From: Obrimoposthia wandeli
Taxonomy: Eukaryota
Assembly: GCA_977020255.1 (NCBI GenBank)
Contig: CDROCS010005398.1
Coordinates: forward strand, 1 to 64,000
Direction: 5' to 3'
Length of the DNA stretch: 64,000 bases
Notes under the pieces: model-generated
The model's database searches: none
Told to the model about the DNA's origin: nothing
What the model saw: the letters and a program-made list of their open reading frames with translations, nothing else
In this document: positions 19,365 through 57,174 of the stretch, in pieces
How positions within the stretch are numbered: position 1 is the stretch's first letter
How the letters are laid out: every line of letters begins with the position of its first letter
Position numbers and translations under genes: made by a program

Positions 19365-19391
19365 AGTGATCAGCACCGAGCTCCTAAAACG

Positions 19392-19420
19392 AAAAAAGCC
19401 TGCTCAATGAACAGGCTTTT
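19392..19420 (-). terminator. Bidirectional terminator (tRNA operon copy 1 / ABC1 kinase)
   Basis: AAAAAAGCCTGCTCAATGAACAGGCTTTT hairpin with A and T tracts. Confidence 0.8.
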
Positions 19421-19449
19421 CCAAGTTCCAATGACTTGGAATAAATAAG

Positions 19450-19526
19450 TGGTCGGTGATAGAGGATTCGAACCTCTGACCCCCTGGTCCCAAACCAGGT
19501 GCGCTACCAAGCTGCGCTAATCACCG
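19450..19526 (-). tRNA. tRNA-Pro(TGG)
   Basis: CGGTGATTAGCGCAG...CCTGG TT TGG GA CCAGG...TTCGAAT...ACCA, 77 nt. Confidence 0.97.
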
Positions 19527-19530
19527 AACA

Positions 19531-19615
19531 TGGTGCGGAAGGAGAGACTTGAACTCTCACACTTTGCAATACTAGAACCTAAATCTAGCGCGTCTACCAA
19601 TTCCGCCACTTCCGC
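19531..19615 (-). tRNA. tRNA-Leu(TAG)
   Basis: GCGGAAGTGGCGGAATTGGTAGAC...CTAGA TT TAG GT TCTAG, long variable arm, CCA, 85 nt. Confidence 0.96.
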
Positions 19616-19686
19616 ACTAACTATCAACTTATCAGCAGGTAATACTGACAAGGGTCGATAACATCACCTTAGCGTGTTATCAAATA

Positions 19687-19764
19687 TGGGGGCGACTGAA
19701 GGGGATTCATCCCTCGACAACCGGAATCACAATCCGGGGCTCTACCAACTGAGCGACAACCGCC
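19687..19764 (-). pseudogene. Degenerate tRNA-His(GTG)
   Basis: Compared with the intact copy at 56881, the T-loop TTCAA is changed to ATGAA, there is an extra C before CCA, and position 9 is C. Confidence 0.8.
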
Positions 19765-19818
19765 ACAAACTTTTACATCAACCCGTTTTGGTAAACGAAT
19801 CGATTTTAATATGGTGAC

Positions 19819-20200
19819 TGAAGTGGTCAACTAAATGGTAATATTTATATAAAAGCCAGTCTATATCTGCGTTTCCGCTCTTTTAATTTTGTTTTATCGG
19901 TATAACTGGTATCGAATTTTCCTGCCTAATCAGCTCTCTGATTGCCTCACTGTCATAGTCTTTTCAACTATAATGTAGTCACAATCGGATGATTTTTCGT
20001 TGTATTTCCTGTAACACTTTACCAATCGCTTCATGATTATCAGAAACTGTACCTGCGCAATGTTGATGAACTTTAACAATGCTACCGTCAATAAATTCCC
20101 ATTCAAGATCAGGCTCGCTTTTACATGATTTGAATAACCCTATCAATATGCCTTTTTTAGACCAAGTATTAAATCATCAGTATATGGAGCTCCAATCACA
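19819..20200 (-). mobile_element. Degenerate IS5-family (IS427-like) transposase remnant
   Basis: Manual translation: WSSIY**FNTWSKKG...PDLEWEFIDGSIVKVHQH.AG...AIGK / GNTTK / KDYDSEAIRELIR...IPVIP...GNADIDW.LYKY.HLV. Stops, frameshifts and an internal deletion; not in the ORF track. Confidence 0.75.
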
Positions 20201-20336
20201 AAAGATCAACACGCTCTAGTTAACAATTAAACTAAACCCTAAAGCAATTGTTAATGACATGATTACTTTAAGGTTAAGAAATAAATAAGCCTTTAACCGC
20301 TATTAAACATCAGCAAAAAATAACACCACAGAGAAA

Positions 20337-20376
20337 GCGATAAACGATCCGTTACAGGTAACGGATCGCTTATCGC
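20337..20376 (-). terminator. Near-perfect 40-bp palindrome downstream of the NSS transporter
   Basis: GCGATAAACGATCCGTTAC-ag-GTAACGGATCGCTTATCGC (19-bp arms, 1 mismatch). Confidence 0.65.
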
Positions 20377-20396
20377 AAGCTAATATTACAGATTGA

Positions 20397-21797
20397 TCAC
20401 ACTAGGGCATTGATGAATACAATTACGATAGCCAGCGGTGTGAGGTAACGCATAGTGAATTGCCATACCTTAAATAACAAGCCGCTACCCAGCCCCAATT
20501 CTTCTTGTGCTACTTTTGCGTTAATTACCCAAGCCGCAAAGATTGCGATTAATAAGCCACCTAAAGGCATTAACAGGTTAGCGGTCAAGAAGTCGATTAA
20601 CTCAAAGAAATTCTTACCGAAAATTTTGTGATCTTCCCATATATTGAAGGAAAAGACGACACCTACGCCCATTACCCACAAGACCAAACTAAAACATACA
20701 CAGGCTTTTAGACGAGAAAATTTATATTTTTCTGTCAACCAAGAAACCGAAGGCTCAATTAAAGATATCGAAGAGGTCAGCGCCGCAATCGACACCATGA
20801 TAAAGAACAATGTACCAAAAACAACACCAAGAGGCATCTGACCAAATGCAATTGGTAGCGTGATGAACATCAAACCTGGACCAGCACCGGGCTCTAAGCC
20901 ATAAGCGAATACAATCGGGAACATAGCCATACCAGCTAACAAGGCAACGCCAGTATCAAGTAACGCAATAACCATCGAAGTTTTTACAATCGAGGTATTT
21001 TTAGGCAGGTAAGAGCCATATGCCATGATCGCACCAGCGGCCAAACTCAGGGTAAAGAAAGCATGACCTAACGCAACCAAGACACTTTCGGTAGTCAGCT
21101 TGCTAAAATCTGGAGAAAATAAGAACTCAAGCCCTTCCATAAAATGGCCAGTACTCATCGCGTAGCCAACTACGATCAGGAGCAGTGCGAGCAGAGCTGG
21201 CATTAACAGATTAATCGCTTTTTCCAAACCAGCATTAAGGCCTCGTCCGACAATCAGCATGGTTAGTAGAATGACGACTGTACTCCACGAAAGTAGACCA
21301 ATTGGATCAGCCAGCATACCACCAAACATTGCACCAGCCTGATCGGCGGTGATATCAACAAAGGCACCGCTGCCAGATGTGAACACATAGGATAGCGCCC
21401 AGCCAGCAATAACGGTATAGAAGCTCAGGACCAAAAATCCGGTGATAACGCCCATCCAGCCAACACCTCTCCAAAGTTTACTCGCCTTAGCTTCGATGGC
21501 TAAATGTTCCATTGCATCAGCAGGGTTCTTTTGAGCACGACGACCGATCATTATTTCTGCCATCATAACCGGAATACCGATTAACAAGATGCAGCCCAAG
21601 TATACTAATACGAAAGCGCCACCACCATTTTCACCAGTGATGTAGGGGAACTTCCAGATATTACCCAGGCCGACGGCAGAGCCAGCAGCAGCGAGGATAA
21701 AAGCCATGCGGCTTGACCACTGAAGACGTTTTTTACCTGTTGTTGCAGCCGAACTGCCATCTGCTGATTCAGTGATGGTACCGGTTAGATCAGACAT
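20397..21797 (-). CDS. Sodium-dependent transporter, neurotransmitter:sodium symporter (NSS/SNF) family
   Basis: WSSRMAFILAAAGSAVGLGNIWKFPY, GGGAFVLVY, GHAFFTLS, GPGLMFITLP. Confidence 0.95.
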   Translation of the reverse strand: MSDLTGTITESADGSSAATTGKKRLQWSSRMAFILAAAGSAVGLGNIWKFPYITGENGGGAFVLVYLGCILLIGIPVMMAEIMIGRRAQKNPADAMEHLAIEAKASKLWRGVGWMGVITGFLVLSFYTVIAGWALSYVFTSGSGAFVDITADQAGAMFGGMLADPIGLLSWSTVVILLTMLIVGRGLNAGLEKAINLLMPALLALLLIVVGYAMSTGHFMEGLEFLFSPDFSKLTTESVLVALGHAFFTLSLAAGAIMAYGSYLPKNTSIVKTSMVIALLDTGVALLAGMAMFPIVFAYGLEPGAGPGLMFITLPIAFGQMPLGVVFGTLFFIMVSIAALTSSISLIEPSVSWLTEKYKFSRLKACVCFSLVLWVMGVGVVFSFNIWEDHKIFGKNFFELIDFLTANLLMPLGGLLIAIFAAWVINAKVAQEELGLGSGLLFKVWQFTMRYLTPLAIVIVFINALV

Positions 21798-21872
21798 AGA
21801 TTCTTCCTTGTTTCTTATTGTTTAGTATTGTTTTATTTAGAAAACGCAGGCGCTTTAAACTCGCCATATAAT

Positions 21873-41813: not shown

Positions 41814-42045
41814 AACATGGTGCGGAAGGAAAGACTTGAACTCTCACACCCTAAGATACTATACCCATGATCTTTGATAATGCTTCTCATCGAGAAAAAA
41901 GAATTGAAATTTAATTTAATAAGATCAAACTAGGAACATGAAAATATTACTCACTATTAGGCGACAATTAACTTGTCCGGTTGACGACAACTAGCTTGGC
42001 CGGTTTTGGTACACTCTAAGCATATGAAATCTTTCGGAGATCGAT

Positions 42046-43544: not shown

Positions 43545-44308
43545 TGGGCCGTACAAAGCTTACCTATATTGCTCTGGGAAGAGTTACGAGCATGCCATTG
43601 CTAAAGCATGGCCGGAATTGTCAAAGAAAGCAGTCGAAGAACAGTGGCAACCAGAAGTATTTCTCGCTGAGCTCTGTGAAATAGAAGCGTCACATCGCTA
43701 TGAAAACAAACTAAAACGTTTATTAAAAGACAGCCAATTGCCCATTGGGAAACAGTTGTCACAGTATGATTTCAGTGAGGTATCGGGGATCTCAGCACAG
43801 CAAATAAAACAAAAAATGCAGAACTTGGACTGGCTTAGGCAGGGTCACAATATCTTATTATTTGGCGCTAGCGGGCTTGGTAAAACGCATCTAGCCTCAG
43901 CGCTAGGTTACGCCCTCATTGAGCAATCAGTTCGGGTTAAATTCAGTACCAGTACGGCCTTAGTGCAGTTGTTACAGAGGGCAAGAGAAGAACTTAGGCT
44001 CGAGGAAGCGCTCAATAAATTAGACAAATACGAGCTGTTGATACTTGATGATATTGGTTATGTGAAAAAGAGTGACAGTGAAAGTCAGGTGTTATTTGAG
44101 TTGATCGCACATCGTTATGAACGTGGAAGTCTTTTGATTACAACAAATCAAGCGTTTAGTGAGTGGGATAGTATATTTGGTGACAATATGAGGACCAGCT
44201 GCAGCGATCGACAGACTTGTACATCACGCGGTAATTTATCAAATAGAAGGGGAAAGTTATAGAAAGAAACAAGCAATGAAATCGAATGCTAAAAACCGGC
44301 CAAGTTAA
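43537..44308 (+). CDS. istB: IS21 helper ATPase IstB (frameshifted ends)
   Basis: GASGLGKTHLA, LLILDDIGY, ITTNQAFSEWDSIFGD. AAIDRLVHHA...EGESYRKK appears in a shifted frame. Confidence 0.88.
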
Positions 44309-45476
44309 TTGACGCCAACCGGCCAAAGTAGTTGACGTCTAATACTCACACACCAAGAAAAGCTAACCTTAGAGTCACGCCACAGAAAAAGCAGTGATAA
44401 ACGTGAGTGTGACCGAATTAAAGCAATTTTACTCTCTGCTGAAGGTTGGTCAACAATGATGATATCTCAAGCTCTTCGAAATCATCAAACAAGTATTATT
44501 CGTCACCTAAATGATTATATATCTAATGAGAAACTCACTTCAGAAAATGGTGGTTCAGATAGTTATTTGAATGAAGTACAAACAGAAGTCGCTATCGCTC
44601 ATCTAAGTGATATTACTTACTTTCATATGCATGATATTCGAGACTATATAAAAGACACTTTTGATGTTGAATATTCAATTTCAGGTTTGCACAAATGGCT
44701 TCATCGTAACGGCTTTAGCTACAAGCAGTTAAAAGGCGTTCCTCACAAATATGAGCAAGAAAAACAAGATGTTTTTGTTGAGGAGTATGAAGTACTAAAG
44801 GCAACGGTAGCAAGCGATGAGCCTATTTTATTCATGGATGCAACACATCCTACCCAAGCGACAAAAGTCAGCAATGCCTGGATACAAACAGGAAGAGATA
44901 AGCCAATAGAAACGACAGGCTCACGTACTCGATTAAATATTGTAGGCGCAATAAGATTGGGTCATTTAGAGGATGCAATTACGCAACAATATCCGACTGT
45001 AAATGGCGAATATATAATTGATTTTTTTTGCTGTGTAAAAGAGAAATATCCTCAAAGGAAGACAATTCATTTAATACTTGATGGTGCAGGATATCACCGT
45101 AGTAAGGTCGTCAAAAGTAAAGCGATAGAATTAGGCATTGAACTTCATTATTTGCCCCCCTACAGTCCAAATTTAAACCCTATTGAGCGGTTGTGGAAAG
45201 TAATGAATGAGCATGCAAGAAATAACAAGTATTTTTCATCAGCCAAAGAATTTCGACTGAGCATAGATACCTTTTTTGATGAGACTCTACCCAATATAGG
45301 GAATACTTTGAATGGTAGAATCAATGACAAATTTCAAACCTTCGACTTTTCATCTTGAAAGGCGACGGGTATAGAACCTAAGTCTAGCGTGTCTGCCACT
45401 TTCGCACTAACTATCAACTTATCAGCACGTAATTCTGGCAAGGGTCGATAACATCACCTTAGCGTGTTATCAAATA

Positions 45477-45553
45477 TGGGGCGACTGAAGGGGATTGAAC
45501 CCTCGACAACCGGAATCACAATCCGGGGCTCTACCAACTGAGCGACAACCGCC
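45477..45553 (-). tRNA. tRNA-His(GTG), C9 variant
   Basis: G-1, CCGGA TT GTG AT TCCGG, intact T-loop; position 9 is C as in copy 1. Confidence 0.85.
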
Positions 45554-45618
45554 ACAAACTTGTTGTTAATTTCGCGATGTAATTATAAATAATACATTAG
45601 CAAAACTAATCTTAAAAA

Positions 45619-45664
45619 TGGTAACCCCTATAGGATTCGAACCTATGGCCTACGGCTTAGAAGG
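45619..45664 (-). repeat. 3' 46 nt of tRNA-Arg(TCT): att-like duplicated half
   Basis: Matches 57020-57064 (1 mismatch) and ends just 5' of the anticodon loop. Confidence 0.9.
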
Positions 45665-45687
45665 TTATACAGGGCCAAACTAGCGCT

Positions 45688-45780
45688 TGGTGTTTAATCG
45701 GTGTAAATTTGTTTTAACTTACTTTTCAGTTAGATAGAATCGAACTTAAAATTACCCATTTACACCGTTCTTCACCGTTC
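45688..45780. repeat. Short direct and inverted repeats next to the half tRNA (possible integrase arm-type sites)
   Basis: TACACCGTTC-TTCACCGTTC tandem (45761-80); inverted CGGTGTAAAT (45699-708) versus ATTTACACCG. Confidence 0.45.
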
Positions 45781-46174
45781 TAGCTACGTTAATCGTAATT
45801 ATGGTCACAATGTATTGCATCGAAAGTGAACAATAAATTGTTGATATAATTCTGGCCACCAGCGATTGGGCAGCTATAAATGACGATTATGTTTTCTAAT
45901 ATGGATCTAATTAGTGGTGCTACTTTATATATTTTTTAAACTTCAGCTGTGAAAGTGATGAACACAATCGTTGAAATTGATGCTATCAAAGATCAACTTA
46001 ATACGGGTCTTGTTCGACAACGCATCAATTCAGATAAAATAAAAATTGAACTAGATGACTTATAAAATCGTGTGACGGATTCTGCAGCATAACGCGATGA
46101 CTGGTGCTAACCAAGCTAAGCGAAAATATTTTCGACCAATTTGATAAGCAACAGCAATTGAATCTGGACTAAAA

Positions 46175-47233
46175 CTACTCGTCTGCACCTTTAGGTCGAC
46201 GCATATTACAAGTCTGACAAAGTGGATTAGTCATGTAATTCTCACGTAAGTGATGGTATTCAGTACTGTGCCAAATATCTGCCACAGATTTTTGATTCAG
46301 GTTACCAAAATTTCCCAATTTTTTTCGTTGCTGATCTGGTGCACAACAAACATTAAAACGCCCATTTGGATCTACCCACATCTCTTTGCCAAGAAAAGGA
46401 CACTCCCCCTCTGGAGAAATATTATCTATTTCCGTTGGATCCAATTCAAAAAAGTTTTCGAGTAACATCTTATGTTCGCTAACATGATTGTGCCTATCTA
46501 CAATGTCATGGCAAATTTTCACGGTCTCATTCCAACACTTTATTGAGTCACTATCCTTACGCAATGATAACGATTTTATCTCTTCAAAATGTGCCCATAA
46601 ATGATGACCTTTTACACGGTCAAAACCAAGTTCAATGGCCATTTCGACCATCTGTGGGATCTCGGCTATATTCGACTCCAAAAATGTTAATTGCATTGTC
46701 ATTTTACAATAATTATTGGTATCTTTAGCCACTTGATCACGAACAGCAATAAAACGCTTAGCATGATCTATGTGCTGCGTAAAACTAGACCGTGGCATGA
46801 TTTGCTCTTGTGTTTTAGCTGTTGCTCCATTCCATGAAATCTTAACATCACTGCCAATCGGTGTTATCCGCGTGGCCCAGTATTCAACGTTCTTTTCTTT
46901 CTCCGGACTTGGGAAAGTACCATTTGTTGTAAGGTTTATTTTTAGATTAAGCTCTTCACACAAATCTAAAATCAAATCAAAATGTCGATATAAAAGTGGC
47001 TCACCCATTGTTGAAGGAATAAGCTCTGTTATGCCAATCTCAGCAGCTTCTCGTACAACTTTTTCTACCAGCGCCTTATCCATATTTTTTCGTTGGGTTC
47101 CATTTCGCTTTCGCTCACTCTGAGGTTCAGCATGAATAGAATGATCCTCACACATAACACAATTTAGGTTACATTGATCAGGGTTAGTATCAATTGTTAT
47201 ACGCCACGGTTGAGTAGCCCTATTTTTTTTCAT
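46175..47233 (-). CDS. Radical SAM protein with C-terminal SPASM/twitch domain
   Basis: CNLNCVMC, TMGEPLL, TTNGT; C-terminal CPFLG..WVD.NG...VCC...GNL....DIW...CQTC. Confidence 0.92.
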   Translation of the reverse strand: MKKNRATQPWRITIDTNPDQCNLNCVMCEDHSIHAEPQSERKRNGTQRKNMDKALVEKVVREAAEIGITELIPSTMGEPLLYRHFDLILDLCEELNLKINLTTNGTFPSPEKEKNVEYWATRITPIGSDVKISWNGATAKTQEQIMPRSSFTQHIDHAKRFIAVRDQVAKDTNNYCKMTMQLTFLESNIAEIPQMVEMAIELGFDRVKGHHLWAHFEEIKSLSLRKDSDSIKCWNETVKICHDIVDRHNHVSEHKMLLENFFELDPTEIDNISPEGECPFLGKEMWVDPNGRFNVCCAPDQQRKKLGNFGNLNQKSVADIWHSTEYHHLRENYMTNPLCQTCNMRRPKGADE

Positions 47234-48522
47234 ATCAATCCCTTATATATTTCTTCCATATCTCTTATTTGTTTGGTGATATCTGGAATGTCGCCATTAT
47301 CACTAAACGGATAGCCTCGTTTACCTAATTTTTCTGACCACGAGGGATCATCAACCATACGCTGCATCTGCTTGGCCATATCTTCAACTGAACGATGTTC
47401 AAATAACAAGCCATTGACGTCATGGTGAACATACTCCGCCATACCGCCTGTATTTGCAGTAATAACAGGAACTCGCGCTTGCTGCGCTTCATGAATAACT
47501 AAAGGAGAGTTTTCCACCCAGATTGAAGGTACAACGATCGCATCAACTTGATTGAATACATCACGAACTATCTCTTGATTCTTATATTCAGCCACCCATT
47601 CAATTTTTTCACATTTCCCTTTTGGTAAGGCTGCAGCAATATCTTTTAGCGCTTTTGTCTCCTGGCCATGCTCCCTGCCCCAGATACGTAATATCGCATC
47701 TCCTTGAACCAACCCAAAAGCATTAATCAATTGATGGATCCCCTTCGCTGGAATATGCGTACCAATGTAACCAAAAGTAAATGATGGTTCTTGATTGCGT
47801 TCACGGTTTTTCATTCTTTCGCGATCGAAACCATAATCGAGATAAACGCTTTTTTCCTTTGGTAACCCAAAATCTTGTTCATAACGATTTTTAAGGTAAT
47901 GGGCTGGAGAAATAAACAGATCAACCTGATCAACTACTTGACGAATATGTGCCATTCTCCTTTCTACCCAGCCCTCCCAATAAGCAATATCAATTTCTCT
48001 TTCTTCATTAGCTCCTGAAAAATAACGAGCATAGCATTGTGTTGCACATTTTTTGTTTTCTTGACCATCACAAGCAGCCCACAAGTTCTGTTCTTGAGAA
48101 TGCATCTGCATGAACTGCCCTCGAGGGCACATCAACCAATAGTCATGTAATGTATATACAACAGGAATATTATTTTTCTTTGCTTCAAAAACAAGTGATG
48201 TGGATAAGTGATTAAGGTGACCAATATGCACTATATCTGGTTTCACTTGCTCAAGTACTTTTGCAAATTCTTGGTCAATGACATCCAAACGGTAACGGTC
48301 TTTATGCCTAGGGTTATTCGTTATATATAATTTAATGCGTGGATCATCAACGTCAGTTTCATAACGCATTGCCCCATCAGCTCTAAAAGGGTCTTCTTCT
48401 CGTGTAAATACATGAACCTCATGCCCTTGTGCAGCAAGGCCAAGGCAAAGTGTTTGAGAATATACTTCAGAACCCGCATTATAACGCATAGGATAACCAT
48501 GGATAACTTTCAAAATCTTCAT
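47230..48522 (-). CDS. Glycosyltransferase family 4 (GT-B)
   Basis: KPDIVHIGHL, YTLHDYWLMCPRG, VPSIWVENSPLVIHEA, GGMAEYV...NGLLF. Confidence 0.92.
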   Translation of the reverse strand: MKILKVIHGYPMRYNAGSEVYSQTLCLGLAAQGHEVHVFTREEDPFRADGAMRYETDVDDPRIKLYITNNPRHKDRYRLDVIDQEFAKVLEQVKPDIVHIGHLNHLSTSLVFEAKKNNIPVVYTLHDYWLMCPRGQFMQMHSQEQNLWAACDGQENKKCATQCYARYFSGANEEREIDIAYWEGWVERRMAHIRQVVDQVDLFISPAHYLKNRYEQDFGLPKEKSVYLDYGFDRERMKNRERNQEPSFTFGYIGTHIPAKGIHQLINAFGLVQGDAILRIWGREHGQETKALKDIAAALPKGKCEKIEWVAEYKNQEIVRDVFNQVDAIVVPSIWVENSPLVIHEAQQARVPVITANTGGMAEYVHHDVNGLLFEHRSVEDMAKQMQRMVDDPSWSEKLGKRGYPFSDNGDIPDITKQIRDMEEIYKGLI

Positions 48523-48525
48523 GTT

Positions 48526-49431
48526 TTATTCACCTAACTCTTTTAATTTAAAATCATTCACCAACAGCTCAATACCTTGCTTAGGTGTCACTTTAGCCTT
48601 CCAGCCTAAAAGTAACTTGGCACGCTCAGGATCACCAACAAAACGACTGACATCATATCTACGTGAGGGAGCAACTTGGATGGTCGCATCACTTTGTGCA
48701 GCTTGAATGGCAAACTCAGCCGCTTCTTGCAAAGTCGTCGCAATACCTGGTAATAAATGAATTGGCGGTAAGTCCATAATTCCCGATTCCAGTTTTGAGA
48801 TAATTAGCATTAACCCATCGATAGTGTCGGTGATATGTGTAAAGTCAAATGTATGATTCAACCCATCAACGCGTAGTTGTTCACCTAAAACTGCTGCGCG
48901 ACAAAATGCTGGTAGTACTCTATCTACATGATCATCGATACAACCGTATACATTGGCTAATCGTACAATAGCAGTTTGTAACCCCTGTACTCTTGCCGTC
49001 ATTGTCGAATCTTCCATTGCCATTTTAGATCTACCATAAATATTCACAGGATTCACAACACAGCTTTCAGCAACGGGCAGTTCAGTGGGTTCCCCATACA
49101 CTTCCCTACTACTTGCAACTAACACCCAAGGTGACAACTCACTTTCTAAAGCAATTTTAAGCAATTTCTGGCTTGCCTCCGCATTAGTTTTCCAACATAA
49201 ATCAGGGTCATTCTCACCCCAAACTACGCGAGAGACAGCTGCAAGATGTACTACCCCAGAGCATCCTTGAATTGCCTTTCTAATTTGTTCTTCATTGCAA
49301 ATACTGCCTTTAAACTCAGCAAATTCAGCGACAAGATCCAATCCAACCACGTTAAAGCCGGCATGATTCAATGCAGCGGTTAGCGCCCGGCCCACCAGCC
49401 CTTCATGCCCGGTAATTAATATCTTTTTCAT
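48526..49431 (-). CDS. NAD-dependent sugar epimerase/dehydratase (extended SDR)
   Basis: ILITGHEGLVG, VVHLAA, ASSREVYG, YGRSK, RLANVYG, FDFTHITD. Confidence 0.92.
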   Translation of the reverse strand: MKKILITGHEGLVGRALTAALNHAGFNVVGLDLVAEFAEFKGSICNEEQIRKAIQGCSGVVHLAAVSRVVWGENDPDLCWKTNAEASQKLLKIALESELSPWVLVASSREVYGEPTELPVAESCVVNPVNIYGRSKMAMEDSTMTARVQGLQTAIVRLANVYGCIDDHVDRVLPAFCRAAVLGEQLRVDGLNHTFDFTHITDTIDGLMLIISKLESGIMDLPPIHLLPGIATTLQEAAEFAIQAAQSDATIQVAPSRRYDVSRFVGDPERAKLLLGWKAKVTPKQGIELLVNDFKLKELGE

Positions 49432-49487
49432 ACATATATCCTTACTTGAATTACTACAATACTTTATGCTTTACCATTGAGATGCTT

Positions 49488-51044
49488 CTAAGAAGACCAC
49501 AGGTATTTAACACCTAGATTTTTAGCTTCATCTATTGCTTGTTGGAATGAACCGACGATAGGCACACCACGTCCGTTAAATGAGGTATTTATCACCCCAT
49601 ATATCTGATATTCATCATGCAGTGTTCTTAAAATCTGATAAATATGGTTATTGTCGAAAGAGCTCTTGCTAATGACTTGGGCGCGTACTGAATCATCAGC
49701 ATGAATACAACCTGAAAATGCCATTTTCCATGTTGATTTTATCTGCCATGCGCCCAACATAAATAATGAAAGGTTTGAATCGGGTTTATAACCAATGAGT
49801 GCAGCTTCCGCTACTTCTGGGAGCATGATCGGCGCAACGGGTCGATACCATTCCCGTTGCTTAATGTCTTCGCTTAAATATTTTCTGAGTGATTTTGAGT
49901 CGGGGCGAATTAATAAACTTCGATGACCTAATGCTCTGGGGCCTATTTCAGCATCCCCTTTAAATACAGCCACAACTTCACCAGCTGCGATAAGCGCTGC
50001 CGCCTTAGCACTTTCTTGAAATACTTCAATACCTTCTGTATTAACCCCATCGCTATCATCTATATGATTTAAAAAAGCATTGTGAATTTTTATCTCGCTG
50101 CCCTTTTGCCACTCAAAGAATGCTGCAGCGCCCAATGCGAGCCCGCAATCGCTTGGTGCTGGCGGTATGTATATATTTTTAAATCCCAATTCACGCTCAA
50201 TTCTTGTATTAACATGAATATTTAAGGCCGCGCCACCTGAGTAATACAGTGAAGTAGCACCTGTATTTTTTTTGAATTTTTCGATATAGCTTAACGCTTG
50301 TATTTCTATTTCACGTTGCATGCAGGCAGCAATGTCAGCACCTTTCATACCTTCAACATCAACTATTTCGGCATTGTCCATATACCAGTTATTTGTCTTT
50401 AAATTCTGATGCAAAGCTTGGGAATATTGACCGTAACTTGCTAGCCCCATCAGTTTTCCAGGTAAAGATAAATGATCGTCAAGCGATAAGTTTAATATTC
50501 TGGCAGACAATGGATTGGCGTTAAAATTATTCACAGCCTGCTTTAGCTTTGCATGCCAGCTATGATCTAAATGACATATTTTTTTGCCATCAAAATACCA
50601 TGCTGATGCGCAGGATTTCGATGCGCCACCATCAATATGGATAAGTAAACTATTTGCTTTAAAGCCACCAAAGAAAGGTAAGCATGTACCAATGTGAGCC
50701 ATCTCATGTGCAATAACATGTTTATTTTCAGCTGTCTTTTTAAGCATCTCTTCAATAGCAAAGTTCGTGATATCGTCAAATATAACGTCACCACAGTCAC
50801 TATGAAATTGATTGCTCATAAACGAATTAGCCAACACCCATTGCACATCATCTTCATTGTTTAACCAAGGCTTGAGTAGTTTACTAATATATTCATTCAG
50901 TCTGCCATCATGTTTATGCTGCGTGAACCTTTCTAACTCGCAGCTGTAAATAACAGCGCCATTTTGCATAACAGCAACACCATGATCATGAGAACGGTAT
51001 TGCCCCGTGACATCCGCATCGCCATATACTCCAATCGTAAACAT
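49488..51044 (-). CDS. O-carbamoyltransferase (NodU/CmcH/TobZ family)
   Basis: SHD, ELERF..HKH, HEMAH, IDGG, GKLMGLASYG, GGAALN, SDCGLALGAA, EIGPRALGHRS, REWYRPVAP, NTSFN. Confidence 0.93.
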   Translation of the reverse strand: MFTIGVYGDADVTGQYRSHDHGVAVMQNGAVIYSCELERFTQHKHDGRLNEYISKLLKPWLNNEDDVQWVLANSFMSNQFHSDCGDVIFDDITNFAIEEMLKKTAENKHVIAHEMAHIGTCLPFFGGFKANSLLIHIDGGASKSCASAWYFDGKKICHLDHSWHAKLKQAVNNFNANPLSARILNLSLDDHLSLPGKLMGLASYGQYSQALHQNLKTNNWYMDNAEIVDVEGMKGADIAACMQREIEIQALSYIEKFKKNTGATSLYYSGGAALNIHVNTRIERELGFKNIYIPPAPSDCGLALGAAAFFEWQKGSEIKIHNAFLNHIDDSDGVNTEGIEVFQESAKAAALIAAGEVVAVFKGDAEIGPRALGHRSLLIRPDSKSLRKYLSEDIKQREWYRPVAPIMLPEVAEAALIGYKPDSNLSLFMLGAWQIKSTWKMAFSGCIHADDSVRAQVISKSSFDNNHIYQILRTLHDEYQIYGVINTSFNGRGVPIVGSFQQAIDEAKNLGVKYLWSS

Positions 51045-51048
51045 ATAG

Positions 51049-52317
51049 CTAACCTTTATATTCAGAGATTAAACGAACCGATAAATCATTGCCCGATTTA
51101 ACAAAACAGATTCCAGCTAGATAATCACACCAATCATTTCTATTAGGTACTTTCAAACCAAGAAATGACATCAAGCATACAATATGCAGATCATGGGAAA
51201 CCAAAACAGAAATTGATTCTTTAGATAGCTGACTTTTAACAAAATCAATTAACTCGTTTGAAGCATCTGCAATTGGTCGCATACCACTCGCAAAACCAGT
51301 CGTAACATAGTGTTCAATAAAAGCATAAAAATCCGCCGCCATTTCTGATTCATGTTCAGAAGAACCATCAAAATATACACCGGGATCACCTAGTAATGGA
51401 TTTAATTCTATAGGCTGTTGTGAGTCATAACTTGATAATATATCGCGCCCTGTTTCAACGCAGCGTGGTACAGGACTAGTGATGACCTTAAGTTTTTCAG
51501 CCGGAGTAAAAAATGATCCAAATACAGTAGCACGCTCTTTACCTTGTCCCGTTAAGGTGACGTCATGACCCCAGTTCGGCGTATCGGCATGAATAACTTG
51601 CCTCTCGGCGTGTCTAACTAGCATTACCATCTGATCGTTATCACCAATCATATCGTTTATAGTAGCTATATTGACTGGAGGATATTTTTGTAAAATCAAG
51701 GTATAGTGGCCATTCTCATGCAAACGTACCAACTGACCATCCAGTGTTTCACAAAATGCATAGTTATTGTAAAACGGCTCCGCGCGTTTAAAACGATGTT
51801 GGTAAATCGCATTTCCATTAACATTAATATGAAAGAAACCATGCTCATCTCTAACGACCGCAAAACCTTTATGGAAAGGTTCAGCATATTCAAAACTATG
51901 ATTATATATTCGCTGTCCAACGTGATTAATATGAAATGCTTTTTCTCCTTGATACGCAACGGCACGTTCATAACGGTAGTCACCCACATAACTAAATCGA
52001 CTTACGTAAACGGGCTCACCAGTCTTATCGATATGATAAAATCCCGTACCGTCTTCAACAACGCAAACATTACCTTGAAAATTACCTGACCATTTAAATT
52101 TATGGGAATGAATAGTCCCTCCCAACACATCAATATGAAAATAACCTAACTCATCAACAACCGTTGCCACGGCATTATAAAAACCAAATGTTTTTATAAA
52201 TCGATGTGAGTAAGCTTCTTTTTCATTCTCATAAATATGATATGCACCCGAAGTATCTATCACGGCAGCAAGTCCTTCTGGAAAATGAAAACTCATTCTT
52301 TGTTGTTCATCTATCAT
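51049..52317 (-). CDS. WG/KWG-like repeat protein fused to a C-terminal histidine phosphatase domain
   Basis: About five ~36-aa repeats (F..G.A.V.D..G.(Y/F)HI...G..(I/A)Y...F); then LVRHAE, SPVPRCVETG, VLVSHD. Confidence 0.8.
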   Translation of the reverse strand: MIDEQQRMSFHFPEGLAAVIDTSGAYHIYENEKEAYSHRFIKTFGFYNAVATVVDELGYFHIDVLGGTIHSHKFKWSGNFQGNVCVVEDGTGFYHIDKTGEPVYVSRFSYVGDYRYERAVAYQGEKAFHINHVGQRIYNHSFEYAEPFHKGFAVVRDEHGFFHINVNGNAIYQHRFKRAEPFYNNYAFCETLDGQLVRLHENGHYTLILQKYPPVNIATINDMIGDNDQMVMLVRHAERQVIHADTPNWGHDVTLTGQGKERATVFGSFFTPAEKLKVITSPVPRCVETGRDILSSYDSQQPIELNPLLGDPGVYFDGSSEHESEMAADFYAFIEHYVTTGFASGMRPIADASNELIDFVKSQLSKESISVLVSHDLHIVCLMSFLGLKVPNRNDWCDYLAGICFVKSGNDLSVRLISEYKG

Positions 52318-52399
52318 TCGTTCACCTAATTAAATCCATTAATAACAATGATAATTAAAGGCAATGCAAAAATTTGTTATTGCCCTTAAGAAGCTACAT

Positions 52400-52603
52400 T
52401 TACCAAGCTCTTTGTTGTTTAGTTAAATGCCAACCTCGCCCATTAGGACACTGGTATACCCGAAGTTTGACGTACTCTGTTTCCGCTAAAAAATCAGCGG
52501 TTTCTTGAGCCTCAGACTTTGAGCCATAGGTTGTTTTTACCTTGCCACCAGCACCTGTACAACTTTGACATAGTTCATTAGCGTTCATTATTTCCATGTA
52601 CAT
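52400..52603 (-). CDS. Small Cys/His protein, putative Zn-binding
   Basis: CQSC...YQCPNGRGWHLT; first ORF after the sigma54 promoter. Confidence 0.65.
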   Translation of the reverse strand: MYMEIMNANELCQSCTGAGGKVKTTYGSKSEAQETADFLAETEYVKLRVYQCPNGRGWHLTKQQRAW

Positions 52604-52696
52604 ATTGATATCCTTATTTTGGTTAAGCTCTTATGAGCAAGATTCAATACGCTAAATCCATACATCTAAATTGAACTGCGCACTTACTTTATGTAT

Positions 52697-52712
52697 TGCA
52701 CAACAGATGCCA
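52697..52712 (-). promoter_or_regulatory. Sigma54 (-24/-12) promoter for the island B operon
   Basis: Minus strand TGGCATCTGTTGTGCA, with GG and GC at the canonical spacing of TGGCACG-N4-TTGC; divergent from a sigma54 activator. Confidence 0.72.
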
Positions 52713-52881
52713 AGTTAAAATTAACTACAAGATAAAACAAATTAATCAAATATAACAATTACTTAAATTATAAGTTTGACGAAGGACTCATTTCAGCATT
52801 AATTAATTTACATAAGACTTAACTTTTATGTAAATTAAAACAAACATAAAGGTTAATCTAATTTGATCATTTAAGGAATTA

Positions 52882-54726
52882 ATGATGACAGGAACATTTA
52901 CTTTCATAACTCCTTTTTTCCAACGCCACGGAGTTGGATATCTGGACGTTATATTACACACAGTGGATAAAGAGCATGACTCACTGTCAAGTGCCGGTTA
53001 TCAATCGAAAGAACATGACCAATATGATGCATTCACTAACACATTAAAAAATGGAAAATTAAGCCAACTTAACAAAGTTTTTTACTTATTACCTAAAGGG
53101 TATAAAAACCACAAAGACGCACCTTCGCGATGGAAAGAATTTGTATCGAAAGAAAAAATCAATTTGATCAAAGAAAGTATCGAATCAACATCTAACAACC
53201 CAAAAAATAGCGAGGTAGATCTAGACAAATTAATCACGTATTTGAATAAAGAAGATGGATTGTTTCCTAGTTATGAATGGTTAAAAGGTGAGTGGCGAGA
53301 AATGCCCGATCTTTGGCATATCATTAACGAGTTCAGCCTTGCGACTCAGGTTGAATGGTATAAGAATCATTCACCTGTGTATCAAAAGCATAATGCTCTA
53401 ATTCATTTTGTTGAAATAGACACAACATATTCTCAATTAGAAAATGAATATGAAGTAACTGCTGCATTAAAAAAATGGACTCAGCAAGAGATATTTAACG
53501 AACATACATATATTAACCTCTGGGGAACTGCCACAGCATTTCAACTGGCATGGCACTATTTAGCTTGGTCATCACCAAGGTTAAAACCCATTAGCTTCAT
53601 AAAATGTAAAACATTAAAAGCGACTAAAGATAAACAGCGATTTACCCCACTAATAATCGAATCAGTAAACAAAAATTTATTAGACAAATTAGAACAACAC
53701 AGTCAAAAATCAACATTATCCCAACAACAAAATAATACTGCAGCATGGCTAAAAAAGTATAAAAGTCTTGATGATAACTTTACGATCTTACTTCTAGGTC
53801 CAAAAGGCACTGGTAAGACAAAAGTCGTAGCTGAAATATATAATGAAAACAGCACCGGTAAAGATAACCGAATAATATCTATTAACTGTGCTCAGTTTCA
53901 AAGTAACCCAGAAATTGCACGTAGTGAGCTTTTTGGACATGTAAAAGGATCATTTACTGGTGCTAATGAGAATAAAGAAGGGGCATTTAACGAAGCTAAT
54001 AATAAAGTCTTATTCTTAGATGAGATTCACCATCTTGATAAAGCAACACAATCGATGCTTTTAACCGCGTTACAAACTGATAATGAAGGTTTTTTCAGGT
54101 TTTCTGCGTTAGGAACTACCAATATCCAAACAACAAAATTTCAGCTTATTGTCGCAAGTAATATAAAACACGAAAGTTTAGAAGCCCATATACTCCCCGA
54201 TCTCTTAGACCGTATCAGTCAACGGGTATTAAAATTTGATGCTTTAAAATCCGGAACCACAATAAAAAAAGAATTTAATAGTGTATGGATGTTCATGAAA
54301 ATCTCAGAAGACGCCGTAAACCCCTTACTCTCAGGTGTAAAAACTTACGACTCTAGATTCGAAAAATGGCTAACTAAAACATCACATACATTTGAAGGAA
54401 ATTACCGAGATTTACAAAAAATAGCCATTCTGTGCGCAGACTATCAACGCAGCTGCGATAATCCAGATTTAATACCATCAGACCTTTCTTTGGTTGAATA
54501 TATTAAAACTAATTGGAGAATAAAGACCCGTAAAAAAGACATTACGATTGAGAACTTCCTTGATGAGCATAATCGTCTATCTCTCAAAGAGATCACTAAT
54601 GAATTTAAATCCAAATTAGTCCGTTCAGCTGAAATATTATGTGGAGATCAAAAATCTGCAGCAAAAATGCTTGGCATCACAGCTAAATCATTAATAGAAA
54701 TAAAGAAGAGAGATGAGCCGTCCTGA
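52882..54726 (+). CDS. Sigma54-interacting AAA+ activator, RtcR-like, with putative CARF-like N-terminal domain
   Basis: GPKGTGKT, INCAQF, SELFGHVKGSFTGA, LFLDEI, DLLDRI, GNYRDL, C-terminal Fis-type HTH (DQKSAAKMLGI); no receiver domain. Confidence 0.85.
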   Translation: MMTGTFTFITPFFQRHGVGYLDVILHTVDKEHDSLSSAGYQSKEHDQYDAFTNTLKNGKLSQLNKVFYLLPKGYKNHKDAPSRWKEFVSKEKINLIKESIESTSNNPKNSEVDLDKLITYLNKEDGLFPSYEWLKGEWREMPDLWHIINEFSLATQVEWYKNHSPVYQKHNALIHFVEIDTTYSQLENEYEVTAALKKWTQQEIFNEHTYINLWGTATAFQLAWHYLAWSSPRLKPISFIKCKTLKATKDKQRFTPLIIESVNKNLLDKLEQHSQKSTLSQQQNNTAAWLKKYKSLDDNFTILLLGPKGTGKTKVVAEIYNENSTGKDNRIISINCAQFQSNPEIARSELFGHVKGSFTGANENKEGAFNEANNKVLFLDEIHHLDKATQSMLLTALQTDNEGFFRFSALGTTNIQTTKFQLIVASNIKHESLEAHILPDLLDRISQRVLKFDALKSGTTIKKEFNSVWMFMKISEDAVNPLLSGVKTYDSRFEKWLTKTSHTFEGNYRDLQKIAILCADYQRSCDNPDLIPSDLSLVEYIKTNWRIKTRKKDITIENFLDEHNRLSLKEITNEFKSKLVRSAEILCGDQKSAAKMLGITAKSLIEIKKRDEPS

Positions 54727-54736
54727 TAACGGTCAG

Positions 54737-55636
54737 TTATTCTAGCCCTCCTTTTTGGTAGCCGACGCGCATACTCAGGTATTGAGCCAAGGCTAATAAA
54801 ATATTTATAGGGCTAATTTTCGCAGGCAAAAATAGCGTGGGTTTTAGATCTAACTGATACTTCAGCGCCAATTGTTTATTTCCTCTGCCATAGCGTTTAA
54901 ACCGATTAATAAAACCAATAAAACCATCATCAAATTCATGCTGAGTGCAACTCGCGAATTGGTAGTCGATCTCACCCACCTCTAGTAACCTGAAGGCCAG
55001 ATCAATATCTTCACCACCAGCCTGTTTAAACTCAGGATCAAAAAAGCCTACTTGTCTTATTGCTGATTTTTGGATCAGGCAGTTGGCTGTAACCAAGTAA
55101 TCGGGGCGCTTTCTTTCTAAATATGTCGCTTCAGGAGGGATGAGTGTCTCTTGAGTTTTATAATAACGAGAAAGGTAATCATCCGACACAACATCTATTC
55201 CACCAGCGTAAGCTAATACTTTATTATTATTAGTACAGTATCCAGATATGGTGCTTACCGTTGGTATGCAGTCCGAATCGGTAAACAATATCCACTCTCC
55301 ATTTGCCAACGACACACCTTTATTTCTTGCTGCCGCAGGCCCCACTTCCTTACAAGTTGAAAGAATTAGAGATGTAGGATAATCATTCGGTAAATGCAAT
55401 GCTGGGGTCGAATTATTATCAACAATAATTATTTCTTGTGGATAATGTTCAACAGAAGTGACTTCGGTAAACTCAGCTAAAAAACGATCAATACCAGCCT
55501 GATTATTTTTGACTGGAATGACTACACTGATATTTTTAGCCTCAATGTTCTTTAATGTTTCTAACGTTTTCTTTTTATTGGGGCTATAACCAAGTGTACT
55601 TAAAAGCGTCATACCAAAATCCTTGCAGATAAACAT
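54737..55636 (-). CDS. Glycosyltransferase family 2 (GT-A)
   Basis: ISVVIPVKN, IIIVDNNS, GPAAARNKG, ILFTDSDC, GFFDPEF...GEDIDL. Confidence 0.92.
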   Translation of the reverse strand: MFICKDFGMTLLSTLGYSPNKKKTLETLKNIEAKNISVVIPVKNNQAGIDRFLAEFTEVTSVEHYPQEIIIVDNNSTPALHLPNDYPTSLILSTCKEVGPAAARNKGVSLANGEWILFTDSDCIPTVSTISGYCTNNNKVLAYAGGIDVVSDDYLSRYYKTQETLIPPEATYLERKRPDYLVTANCLIQKSAIRQVGFFDPEFKQAGGEDIDLAFRLLEVGEIDYQFASCTQHEFDDGFIGFINRFKRYGRGNKQLALKYQLDLKPTLFLPAKISPINILLALAQYLSMRVGYQKGGLE

Positions 55637-56069
55637 CTATATATCAAAACATAACTTAACAAAAAAACGTTGAGATATACAATAAATATCCACTGTAATG
55701 AATTAACAATACCTCTTTTACTGTGTGTGCGTAAAATCATTATCGTACATCAAACAGCTAGTAATATCGGATTCTAGCTTGTGAATGTGGGAATATCGGT
55801 ATTTCAATAAATAAGTCAATTATCGGAAACCTCTCGATGATTTCATCTACCACGTGTTTCTTGAAGGGCGTTAACCAGTGTGAATTAAGACCAAATTGTT
55901 ACCAAGAAGCATTTAGCTAATGTTATTTTAACAACATCACAGCTATCAAATGCGGATCTTAACAGCATTCTCGAGATCGTTAAATGCAAAGACACCATAC
56001 ATCATTGTCGAGTAAACAGGTGGCAATTCACGACCTCATTAAAAATTATTTTTATTAACGCCTAAAACC

Positions 56070-56097
56070 AAAAAAGCCTGCATCTTCAGCAGGCTTT
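56070..56097 (-). terminator. Terminator downstream of gene X
   Basis: AAAAAAGCCTGC-atcttca-GCAGGCTTT; counterpart at 41139-41166. Confidence 0.75.
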
Positions 56098-56180
56098 CAT
56101 CTTTCTATATACTATTCACTAACACCATCAACTCAAACATGACTCCACATTCAAGTTAAAACAGTCTGTATTGTAACAGA

Positions 56181-56516
56181 CTAAAGTGCAGCAGCTTCTA
56201 CTTCAGCTACAAGCGCGTTTATTTGCGCGATATTGTCTGTCATTTCAGCACGGAAATCATCAGCAACTGTTTTAGCAGATAGCGTAAGGTAAGTTTCAAG
56301 CTGTACAACTAACAACTTCAATAACGCAGAGTAAGTCGCTGTGTTTTGCTCTTCTTCTAACGCTAACAATGCAGAGCTAATTGCAAAGTGTTGTGTTTTG
56401 GGTTGGTCTGCTTTCGCTAAATGCTTATTTACTTTTAACTCAGCGTAATCAACAAATTGTAATTTAACGTCGATGTCGTTGTTTAGCTTTTCTAAAAATT
56501 GTGTATTATCAGTCAT
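56181..56516 (-). CDS. Hypothetical helical protein ('gene X', 111 aa)
   Basis: RBS, ATG and own terminator. The paralog at 41274-41609 shows synonymous and conservative changes, which supports coding status. Confidence 0.75.
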   Translation of the reverse strand: MTDNTQFLEKLNNDIDVKLQFVDYAELKVNKHLAKADQPKTQHFAISSALLALEEEQNTATYSALLKLLVVQLETYLTLSAKTVADDFRAEMTDNIAQINALVAEVEAAAL

Positions 56517-56584
56517 ATGTAGGCCTTTGTTTTTAAATGCTTACTTAAACCAATAAGCAGCAATTTTTGAAAAATGGTATAACG

Positions 56585-56614
56585 AAAAAAAGCCTGCTCA
56601 ATGAGCAGGCTTTT
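56585..56614 (-). terminator. tRNA operon terminator, copy 3
   Basis: AAAAAAAGCCTGCTCAATGAGCAGGCTTTT. Confidence 0.82.
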
Positions 56615-56643
56615 CCGAATTCCAATTACTTGGAATAAATAAG

Positions 56644-56720
56644 TGGTCGGTGATAGAGGATTCGAACCTCTGACCCCCTGGTCCCAAACCAGGTGCGCTA
56701 CCAAGCTGCGCTAATCACCG
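56644..56720 (-). tRNA. tRNA-Pro(TGG)
   Basis: Full cloverleaf, CCA, 77 nt. Confidence 0.97.
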
Positions 56721-56724
56721 AACA

Positions 56725-56809
56725 TGGTGCGGAAGGAGAGACTTGAACTCTCACACTTTTCAATACTAGAACCTAAATCTAGCGCGTCTACCAATTCCGC
56801 CACTTCCGC
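56725..56809 (-). tRNA. tRNA-Leu(TAG)
   Basis: Full cloverleaf with variable arm, 85 nt. Confidence 0.97.
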
Positions 56810-56880
56810 ACTAACTATCAACTTATCAGCAGGTAATACTGACAAGGGTCGATAACATCACCTTAGCGTGTTATCAAATA

Positions 56881-56957
56881 TGGGGCGACTGAAGGGGATT
56901 GAACCCTCGACAACCGGAATCACAATCCGGGGCTCTACCAACTGAGCTACAACCGCC
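56881..56957 (-). tRNA. tRNA-His(GTG)
   Basis: G-1, T8A9, GTG anticodon, TTCAA T-loop, C73-CCA. Confidence 0.96.
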
Positions 56958-57019
56958 ACAAACTTTTACATCAACCCGCTTTGGTAAGCGAATTAACTTC
57001 TACTTTTACGTAGATAATA

Positions 57020-57096
57020 TGGTGACCCCTATAGGATTCGAACCTATGGCCTACGGCTTAGAAGGCCGTTGCTCTATCCAACTGAGCTAAGGAGTC
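57020..57096 (-). tRNA. tRNA-Arg(TCT)
   Basis: GACTCCTTAGCTCAGTTGGATAGAGC AACGGC CT TCT AA GCCGT...TTCGAAT...CACCA. Confidence 0.97.
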
Positions 57097-57097
57097 G

Positions 57098-57174
57098 TGG
57101 TCGGTGATAGAGGATTCGAACCTCTGACCCCCTGGTCCCAAACCAGGTGCGCTACCAAGCTGCGCTAATCACCG
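57098..57174 (-). tRNA. tRNA-Pro(TGG), first gene of the operon
   Basis: Identical to 56644-56720. Confidence 0.97.

Follow-up and report, generated by a model that had tools for sequence, protein, structure and literature searches.

Two cargo blocks, here called islands A and B, occupy a hypervariable slot behind a Pro-Arg-His-Leu-Pro tRNA operon of Moritella, each lying between copies of that operon. The stretch analysed (the window, 64,000 nucleotides) derives from a Moritella bacterium that is about 97% identical to M. dasanensis. We put at roughly one in two the probability that the blocks are integrase-founded islands that now move as natural duplication-insertions, by homologous recombination and not by integrase action in this lineage. 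The arrangement is an unusual variant of the well-known tRNA-targeted islands, and precedents exist for all its ingredients: tandem accretion, whole-tRNA replacement in phage HP1, and duplication-insertions.

Three operon copies bracket two islands

ARAGORN and self-BLAST bear out the initial annotation of three minus-strand operon copies (Table 1), with repeat periods of 22.3 and 14.9 kb, in agreement with its figures, and with the full tRNA-Arg(TCT), the upstream tRNA-Pro and the promoter confined to copy 3. Copy 1 is identical to copy 3 at 404 of 417 positions, and the lower half of copy 2 is 91% identical to copy 3 over 751 bp, far above chance; the longest exact repeats among the copies are 159, 132 and 62 bp. 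The lesions previously listed were likewise recovered: the T-loop changes in copy 1 tRNA-His (T54A at 19710 and C56G at 19708), the IS-split tRNA-Leu, and G37A in tRNA-Pro of copy 2 (at 41776 in the gene at 41737–41813). Gene X of copy 2 (41274–41609) is disrupted as claimed, by two stops (41447 and 41426) rather than one. Terminators t1 and t2 are fused in copy 1, which is why it lacks gene X. The Arg fragment of copy 2 comprises 46 nt from the anticodon loop onwards (45619–45664), and that of copy 1 is the 3′-most 7 nt (19812–19818), behind an IS remnant. The tRNA-His substitution A9C is common to copies 1 and 2 and absent from copy 3 and all 11 aligned relatives. Folding of the tRNA-His copies, tried as a damage test, did not separate damaged from intact genes.

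Table 1. Features of the window; dashes under strand denote the minus strand.
Feature	Position	Strand	Details
ABC1/UbiB-like kinase gene	18003–19364	+	Downstream flank; directly after terminator t2 in the empty state
Copy 1	19385–19818	-	Extent by ARAGORN and self-BLAST; last 7 nt of Arg, short Arg–His spacer, His with 4 changes, intact Leu and Pro
Promoter-like TTGACC-16-TAAAAT	19803–19830	-	Predicted; 10/12, spanning the IS/Arg junction; 2 sites found versus 3.2 expected by chance
Degraded transposase remnant	19819–20200	-	Where the att arm would be; putatively IS5 family, by motif
Island B cargo	20397–40736	-	Phenylacetate cluster
Copy 2	41106–45664	-	Extent by ARAGORN and self-BLAST; IS-split
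Copy 2, lower half	41106–41861	-	Leu 3′ half, Pro with G37A, t1, gene X, t2
IS630	41862–45371	+	In tRNA-Leu at a duplicated TA
IS21 (istA, istB)	41955–44344		Nested within IS630; 5-bp target repeat
Copy 2, upper half	45372–45664	-	Arg 3′ fragment, G003/G014-type spacer, His with A9C, damaged Leu 5′ half
Conserved att arm (attR)	45665–45905	-	Island family targeting tRNA-Arg(TCT); 81% to L068, 72% to L064
Island A cargo	46175–55636	-	Carbamoyltransferase/glycosyltransferase cluster; AAA activator on +
Copy 3, repeat	56037–57065	-	Extent by ARAGORN and self-BLAST
Copy 3, working operon Pro-Arg(TCT)-His-Leu(TAG)-Pro	56062–57174	-	95% to M. dasanensis
Copy 3 terminator t2	56062–56098	-	
Copy 3 gene X	56181–56516	-	Intact
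Copy 3 terminator t1	56588–56614	-	
Full tRNA-Arg(TCT)	57020–57096	-	In copy 3
Operon promoter TTGACG-17-TAATAT	57208–57236 (57236–57208)	-	Predicted; sigma-70 type; identical sequence in L026

Both outer flanks of the window are collinear with one genome, M. dasanensis, at 96–97%, and that genome has the operon without either cargo block, which upholds the earlier proposal of two islands accreted at an empty site. Across the downstream flank in the empty state, positions 10441–20333 of L026 align to window positions 19419–9529 at 96%. Island B encodes an SNF transporter, an aromatic aminotransferase, E2, a fused E1, MarR, a FadJ-like protein, PaaX, paaABCDE and paaJ, I, G, Y and Z; none of its cargo had a match in any of 13 Moritella genomes. 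Island A encodes radical SAM/SPASM, GT4, NAD epimerase, carbamoyltransferase, histidine phosphatase and GT2 proteins along with the AAA activator, which is of sigma-54 type, and in the 13 relatives its cargo matched just one 302-bp scrap at 71%, in a single genome. PADLOC returned only weak viperin and RtcR/PspF domain matches on island A.

Could the arrangement be an assembly artefact, with alleles from several Moritella strains of a mixed sample chained through the tRNA repeats? At least one further Moritella (C506) is present in the source assembly, which comprises 1.35 Gb in 6912 contigs, each of the three copies has different spacer alleles, and no read across all three was seen. We nevertheless regard this as very improbable: a Logan contig of 10,566 bp, from what is probably the source run, agrees with 45635–56200 with 0 differences and so spans island A and both its junctions, copies 1 and 2 have lesions of their own and neither carries promoter-side flank, the outer flanks both follow a single genome, and C506 is only 82–84% alike in the flank.

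Island A ends in a conserved att arm

Judged by its sequence, the right end of island A is a true tyrosine-integrase attR at the anticodon loop of tRNA-Arg(TCT). The junction between arm and Arg is identical in 4 of 9 metagenome loci, in which the arms are related and the cargo and downstream spacers differ; the spacers differ even after arms that are 96% alike. The four loci with attR, drawn from three assemblies, may not be independent of one another, and their contigs reach 59–87 bp into the shared sequence. No short-replacement attL was found among the 9 loci, compared with 4 attR; L063 and L067, with intact Arg genes and no upstream Pro, were not counted as attL. An independent seawater contig repeats the layout of terminator, cargo and attR with cargo only about 80–96% like island A, in keeping with the initial annotation's view that operon-length repeats travel with the cargo. 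In G002, a decayed remnant of the arm lies 15 kb behind a complete operon, with the join point behind a GGDEF gene. A reading of the left edge of copy 2 as a chance microhomology join to DNA found in G002 was dropped because the arm is conserved in four other loci, the G002 piece being a decayed arm.

The proposed Arg att site is thus real for island A and lacks a counterpart in island B, where no att arm was found. A profile search of the window and the relatives' slots for a second arm gave only copy 2 and G002, the latter being the sole genome with the arm among 13 of the family, and across 401 sampled genomes of the order the arm-core pattern had 0 occurrences. Viral contigs, scanned four times by pattern and once with the gene X protein, yielded no attP or attL, and BLAST of plasmids and phages for these sites gave generic tRNA matches only.

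Nor was an integrase detected. None of the 104 PF00589 matches obtained in G000, where 103 of 137 candidates were scored, falls on the contig, and tblastn with 40 ORFs of 21 integrase loci placed none there. In the relatives, 0 of 136 integrase matches of 13 genomes fell within the stretches of the slot examined, among which G007 (contig end) and G012 (operon not found) are not represented. Downstream of t2 in the window, and downstream of gene X in L061, L062 and L066, there was neither an integrase nor a second arm, and no conjugation genes were present among the 54 ORFs scanned. As neither island has an integrase, they have likely spread by homologous recombination, with the duplicated operon as a handle.

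Spacer alleles and polarity

The His–Leu spacer allele of all three copies occurs otherwise only in G001, and 68 of 70 nt of the lineage-specific t1–X spacer are common to copies 2 and 3. The Arg–His spacers of copies 1 and 2 are not of the G001 type, that of copy 1 matching G007 at 46 of 47 positions, and the X–t2 end of copy 2 is of the G008/G004 type. Copies 1 and 2 are chimeric, switching from foreign to host spacer across tRNA-His, and promoter-proximal copy 3 looks native by its alleles. The two gene X copies of the window both group with G001/G005 (97/99). In G008, 29 kb of cargo is flanked by a duplication of gene X–t2 that includes no tRNAs; its distal gene X falls in another clade, so that the foreign duplicate is the distal one. 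The native look of copy 3, the chimeric distal copies and the G008 arrangement all run against the initial annotation's polarity, in which the working copy arrives with the incoming element by way of the att site in Arg, and they make that polarity doubtful. Arg–His spacer types are scattered with respect to the xerD-region tree, which led us to reject spacer type as a strict lineage marker; the distinction between foreign and native therefore depends on one close relative, which counts against the history favoured below.

The suggestion that keeping the operon intact drives the process also fared poorly: in all 5 relatives with a single chromosome, tRNA-His, tRNA-Leu and tRNA-Pro are backed by 2–4 further copies, Arg(TCT) alone being single, and replacement is therefore not forced. 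RecA-mediated loss, also proposed there, is plausible for island A (159-bp exact repeat) and weak for island B alone (at most 62 bp, with an IS between).

Origin of the arrangement

The history that we favour starts from the empty site, the identity of the attR, the absence of an integrase, the chimeric distal copies and their decay. Island A would first have integrated into the anticodon loop of tRNA-Arg in a different lineage of Moritella, giving a right end of arm, Arg 3′ part, spacer and His. Its cargo would then have been joined illegitimately to the tail of an intact operon's terminator t2, with loss of the end bearing the integrase and attL. The resulting fragment, running from gene X/t2 through cargo, attR and spacer to His, would present its homology arms in reversed order, and crossovers in His and in gene X/t2 (by sister exchange, or by a circle followed by conversion) would double the host His-to-t2 block around the cargo. 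Island B may have followed the same route and later lost its arm through an IS-linked deletion. Decay of the promoter-less copies would finally slow RecA-mediated loss.

Several points constrain this history or count against it. Its opening step predicts a short-replacement attL, and the tally over the metagenome loci therefore weighs against it, as does the illegitimate join to t2, which is unobserved. Island B is part of it without any att evidence. Copy 3 is host-like throughout, which excludes a circle that a distant donor contributed by a single crossover, so that two crossovers or a later conversion are needed; the shared A9C of tRNA-His fits no single-crossover history and needs conversion or common descent.

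That same tally, even though the attR contigs enter the shared sequence, favours a possible but rather unlikely alternative, the model of the initial annotation, in which the islands carry the whole block from the Arg 3′ part through His, Leu, Pro and gene X to t2 as a replacement, as in the long attP of HP1, and an integrase, lost or acting in trans, inserts it at the anticodon loop of tRNA-Arg, so that every insertion moves the formerly working copy aside. The precedent of HP1 itself, the repetition of the t2–cargo–attR ends around diverged cargo in an independent strain, the arm remnant past a complete operon in G002 and the scatter of spacer alleles over the species tree speak for it as well. 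It would, however, place the host's own copy distally, but the distal spacer matches G007/G002/G009 and not G001, and the duplicated DNA is of the host lineage from His onwards. The lack of an integrase or second arm behind t2 or gene X, the G008 duplication without Arg, the redundancy of His, Leu and Pro, the empty viral-contig scans and the possible non-independence of the attR loci also tell against it. Less probable still is a one-off local repair, in which ordinary short-att islands separated His-Leu-Pro from its promoter in this lineage and another copy of the operon, from a sister or a conspecific, then recombined in over attL and integrase, leaving a fixed, inherited relic that is not mobile. 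Such a repair explains the absent integrase and the host-like blocks, and the different join point in G002 agrees with it; but two such events are required here, a diverged island in another sample has the same ends, and redundant tRNAs would exert little selection for repair.

Relation to known systems

The islands resemble the tRNA islands and tandem arrays of Islander, which include anticodon-centred sites in 2083 of 3919 islands and 125 tandems of two or more (PMC4383910), in having an intact tRNA at one end and a displaced 3′ fragment at the other, in being anticodon-centred and in standing in tandem. Island A has the intact tRNA and a same-strand 3′ fragment, with a recognised sub-site at which identity begins at the anticodon loop and with a conserved att arm; island B has the 7-nt Arg remnant only. 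A relative holds the empty site, and the cargo is absent from relatives. Neither island contains a tyrosine integrase, and the Islander filter would therefore reject both. Unlike the islands described there, the repeat here spans 0.4–1 kb, with three tRNA genes and a protein gene.

Whole-tRNA replacement, as in the model of the initial annotation, already exists in Haemophilus phage HP1, whose attP (NC_001697, checked directly) holds the tRNA-Leu 3′ half from the anticodon loop and the whole downstream tRNA-Lys, as the block here holds the 3′ part of its target and whole downstream tRNAs. However, the entire annotated attP of HP1 is 444 bp and abuts the integrase, whereas the block here is about 1 kb, has neither an integrase nor a second arm beside it, and looks host-derived.

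The stacking of integrase-less cargo with partial repeats at a tRNA hot spot recalls CIME accretion in Streptococcus thermophilus (PMC4542580) and the additive flexible islands of Alteromonas (PMC4898812). Both keep short att repeats, and CIMEs, which retain attL and attR after losing the integrase, need an adjacent helper ICE; here we saw attR alone, with no attL arm and no helper.

Laboratory duplication-insertions presumably arise by unequal sister recombination, are transferred by transduction and segregate by recA (PMC5389514). Like these and transformation-made merodiploids (PMC3784515), the islands place foreign DNA where two direct copies of host sequence meet, a configuration that in those systems goes with unequal recombination, transferability and recA-dependent loss. 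The laboratory constructs are engineered or transient, whereas the Moritella islands are natural, old enough for decay and, in one case, equipped with an integrase attR. A literature search, with most subscription papers outside its reach, turned up no report of this locus or of operon replacement on the kilobase scale.

The analysis defines an att arm for the family of islands at tRNA-Arg(TCT) in Moritella. Programs that find islands by their integrase overlook blocks of this kind, and decayed operon copies inflate tRNA counts. As a tentative generalization, to which we give less credence than to the history above, islands of this family may never leave a short attL. They would travel with about 1 kb copied from the remainder of the operon, namely three tRNAs, one protein gene and both terminators, would move without encoding an integrase, and would form tandem stacks and redistribute spacer alleles between species. 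If the favoured reading is true, an island that has lost its integrase can keep moving, with the duplicated tRNA operon as a ready handle for homologous recombination, the natural counterpart of a method used in engineering.

Three operon copies around two islands

ARAGORN finds ten tRNA genes in the window, all on the minus strand and in three groups, and self-BLAST aligns the groups with one another (see table), bearing out the triplication described in the initial annotation. Copy 3, the promoter-proximal working operon, runs promoter–Pro–Arg(TCT)–His–Leu(TAG)–Pro–terminator t1–gene X–terminator t2. Copy 2 begins at the Arg anticodon loop, retaining 46 nt of Arg, and carries A9C in His, a 9-nt deletion and an IS630 insertion in Leu (with IS21 nested inside the IS630), G37A in Pro and a gene X interrupted by two stop codons. 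In copy 1 a transposase remnant is followed by the last 7 nt of Arg; His has four changes, Leu and Pro are both intact, and gene X is missing, t1 and t2 being fused into one terminator. A promoter-like sequence spanning the IS/Arg junction of copy 1 might drive transcription of this copy. Gene X (111 aa) has no Pfam, NCBIfam or PADLOC match; it is conserved and lies behind the tRNA operon in every examined Moritella locus that extends to it.

Coordinates of the features discussed
Feature	Sequence	Position	Remark
FdhF/YdeP oxidoreductase	window	10803–13112	two ORFs
Operon copy 1	window	19385–19818	minus strand
Promoter-like sequence	window	19803–19830
Island B	window	20397–40736	between copies 1 and 2
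Operon copy 2	window	41106–45664	minus strand, IS-split
Arm (conserved att DNA)	window	45665–45905
Island A	window	46175–55636	between copies 2 and 3
Operon copy 3	window	56037–57065	minus strand
Gene X, copy 3	window	56181–56516
Repeat pair	window	19385–19800/56578–56993	97% identity
Repeat pair	window	41106–41849/56037–56756	91% identity
Repeat pair	window	45372–45664/56767–57065	83% identity
Run X10 contig match	window	45635–56200	10,566 bp
Arg-like gene and integrase	G000:C2027	332050–333382	another bacterium
Decayed arm piece	G002:C129 (L051)	212518–212605	14 bp of core
Duplicated X–t2 and cargo	G008:C1	1504834–1535387
attP	HP1	251–694	annotated
tRNA-Lys	HP1	356–431	within attP

The window (bases 1–64000) comes from a contig 76,650 bp long; the assembly to which that contig belongs, G000, totals 1.35 Gb and includes bacterial contigs. 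A gene X search retrieved Moritella loci, and both window flanks are 96–97% identical to M. dasanensis ArB 0140 (G001, locus L026), in which operon, gene X, t2 and an ABC1 kinase gene follow one another with no DNA intervening: the exact empty state that the initial annotation envisaged among relatives. The oxidoreductase that is split in the window is undivided in G001 (783-aa frame). A single tRNA-Arg(TCT) is present in 12 of 13 Moritella genomes; none of the 13 has a displaced Arg fragment, and none of the 12 has a second His–Leu–Pro block at the operon locus. One contig of sequencing run X10 reproduces island A and both its junctions with zero differences, although this run probably represents the source sample and is hence biologically non-independent. 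As far as tested, over that span, the triplication is no assembly artefact.

Island cargo

The DNA behind gene X differs among species, with NRPS, siderophore uptake, restriction-like and secretion genes, as judged from ORF starts. Island B, a phenylacetate cluster with a core of 45% GC, has no match in the 13 Moritella genomes. Among its scanned ORFs paaK (phenylacetate–CoA ligase) is missing; the cluster includes an amino-acid symporter, an aromatic aminotransferase, a fused E1 alpha/beta and E2, a set that would route phenylalanine directly to phenylacetyl-CoA. Island A (37.6% GC) matches only a 302-bp scrap in one of the 13 genomes. It encodes Radical SAM/SPASM, GT4, epimerase, carbamoyltransferase, histidine phosphatase, GT2 and sigma-54-type AAA activator proteins, by which it is a predicted, uncharacterised sugar-modifying cluster, presumably akin to aminoglycoside-type tailoring sets. 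Its carbamoyltransferase is 94% identical to one Logan protein and 60–65% to proteins labelled Colwellia, Shewanella and Vibrio, and its cargo occurs also in runs X1 and X2.

An attachment site in tRNA-Arg(TCT)

Scanning metagenomes for the Arg 3′ half gave nine loci: four (L064, L065, L068 and L069) in which non-tRNA DNA is joined at the exact base where copy 2 starts, three intact Pro/Arg–His operons, and two Arg genes elsewhere in other contexts. The 220 bp upstream of copy 2 are 81% identical to L068 and 72% to L064, whose cargo differs from that of island A. The arms of L065 and L069 are 96% alike and their downstream spacers unlike, as expected if the crossover falls in Arg and the spacer is host-owned. 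These comparisons identify the edge of copy 2 as an attR; anticodon-centred sites are the commoner class in Islander (PMC4383910). No att arm was found ahead of copy 1. In independent seawater run X2, a 10,867-bp contig with island A cargo ends in 70 bp of arm plus core on one side and 20 bp of t2 tail on the other; the t2 match is short, yet both ends hit identical landmarks to island A. Moritella genome G002 has a decayed piece of this same arm 15 kb behind its intact operon, behind a GGDEF-EAL gene.

No integrase was found among the 54 window ORFs. PF00589 has no match on the source contig and 104 elsewhere in G000 (103 of 137 candidates scored), and a tblastn search whose queries were 40 ORFs taken from 21 integrase loci, and whose control gave 227 cross-locus pairs, detected no remnant. 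Nor was an integrase found at the corresponding slot of relatives, within the stretches covered, or behind gene X in L061, L062 and L066. In another bacterium of the assembly, a tyrosine integrase lies ~0.8 kb away from a gene that resembles tRNA-Arg and is 84% identical to that of the window.

Native and foreign segments

If an element had integrated at Arg and brought a long replacement, the proximal copy would be foreign and the distal copy native, the polarity originally proposed; segment typing indicates the opposite. The Arg–His spacer of copy 3 is of the long type, as in G001 and C506 (another Moritella in the assembly), that of copy 1 is 46/47 identical to G007, and copy 2 has a spacer of type G003/G014/G004. 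Immediately beyond His, all three copies share a His–Leu spacer allele whose only other occurrence is in G001. Between copies 2 and 3, 68/70 nt of the t1–X spacer agree (score against G001 only 0.79), and both their gene X sequences cluster with G001 and G005 (97/99); the X–t2 end of copy 2 resembles G008/G004. Foreign markers thus lie within island B close to each end, and within island A close to its right end, and the DNA beyond is of the host lineage; this is what crossovers in gene X/t2 and in His would leave behind. In G008, an independent case of a distal foreign duplicate, X–t2 is present twice, without tRNAs, on either side of 29 kb of defence-like cargo; the distal X belongs to another clade, that of G002/G003/G014, and the proximal X clusters with G004/C506, kin of G008 by the xerD-region tree. 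Against a native proximal copy, spacer types are scattered across the species tree, the typing has one close relative only, and the His A9C shared by copies 1 and 2 requires conversion or common descent. In G007 and G014 (L090, L038) the His–Leu spacer carries a second operon's sequence, which points to conversion between two tRNA operons.

Origin and mobility of the islands

The initial annotation's interpretation, that each element brought a replacement for the tRNAs downstream of Arg, is supported in part. Such replacement is already known, since HP1 attP carries a whole tRNA-Lys behind the 3′ half of tRNA-Leu, and stacking has precedents in tandem islands (PMC4383910), Alteromonas additive islands with partial tRNA repeats (PMC4898812) and CIME accretion (PMC4542580). 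PMC3448106, PMC12540744 and PMC9897764 offer general background only, and literature searches turned up no paper about this locus or about operon blocks of kilobase size. The finding of four attR and zero short attL is the main support for islands that carry the rest of the operon as a long attP, which we consider a tentative second choice. The proposed driver, keeping the whole operon intact, is not supported: all five single-chromosome relatives have a single Arg(TCT) gene and, elsewhere, at least two His, four or more Leu-like and three or more Pro genes (anticodons of the extra copies checked in C506 only), so that Arg alone must be restored.

We favour, at a probability of about 0.5, islands that an integrase founded, that later lost the end bearing attL and the integrase, and that today spread as natural duplication-insertions. 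A fragment comprising gene X/t2, cargo, attR, spacer and His would carry homology arms in reversed order, so that recombination would leave a copy of the host block on either side of the cargo. Dup-Ins made by engineering are described as behaving likewise, with segregation above background from a 300-bp repeat (PMC5389514), and transformation as yielding merodiploids through unequal crossing-over (PMC3784515). The longest exact repeats (159 bp between copies 2 and 3, 132 bp between copies 1 and 3, 62 bp between copies 1 and 2) make the suggested RecA-mediated loss plausible for island A or both islands, and less so for island B alone. The two models can be sequential, with a long attP as origin and RecA then as vehicle.
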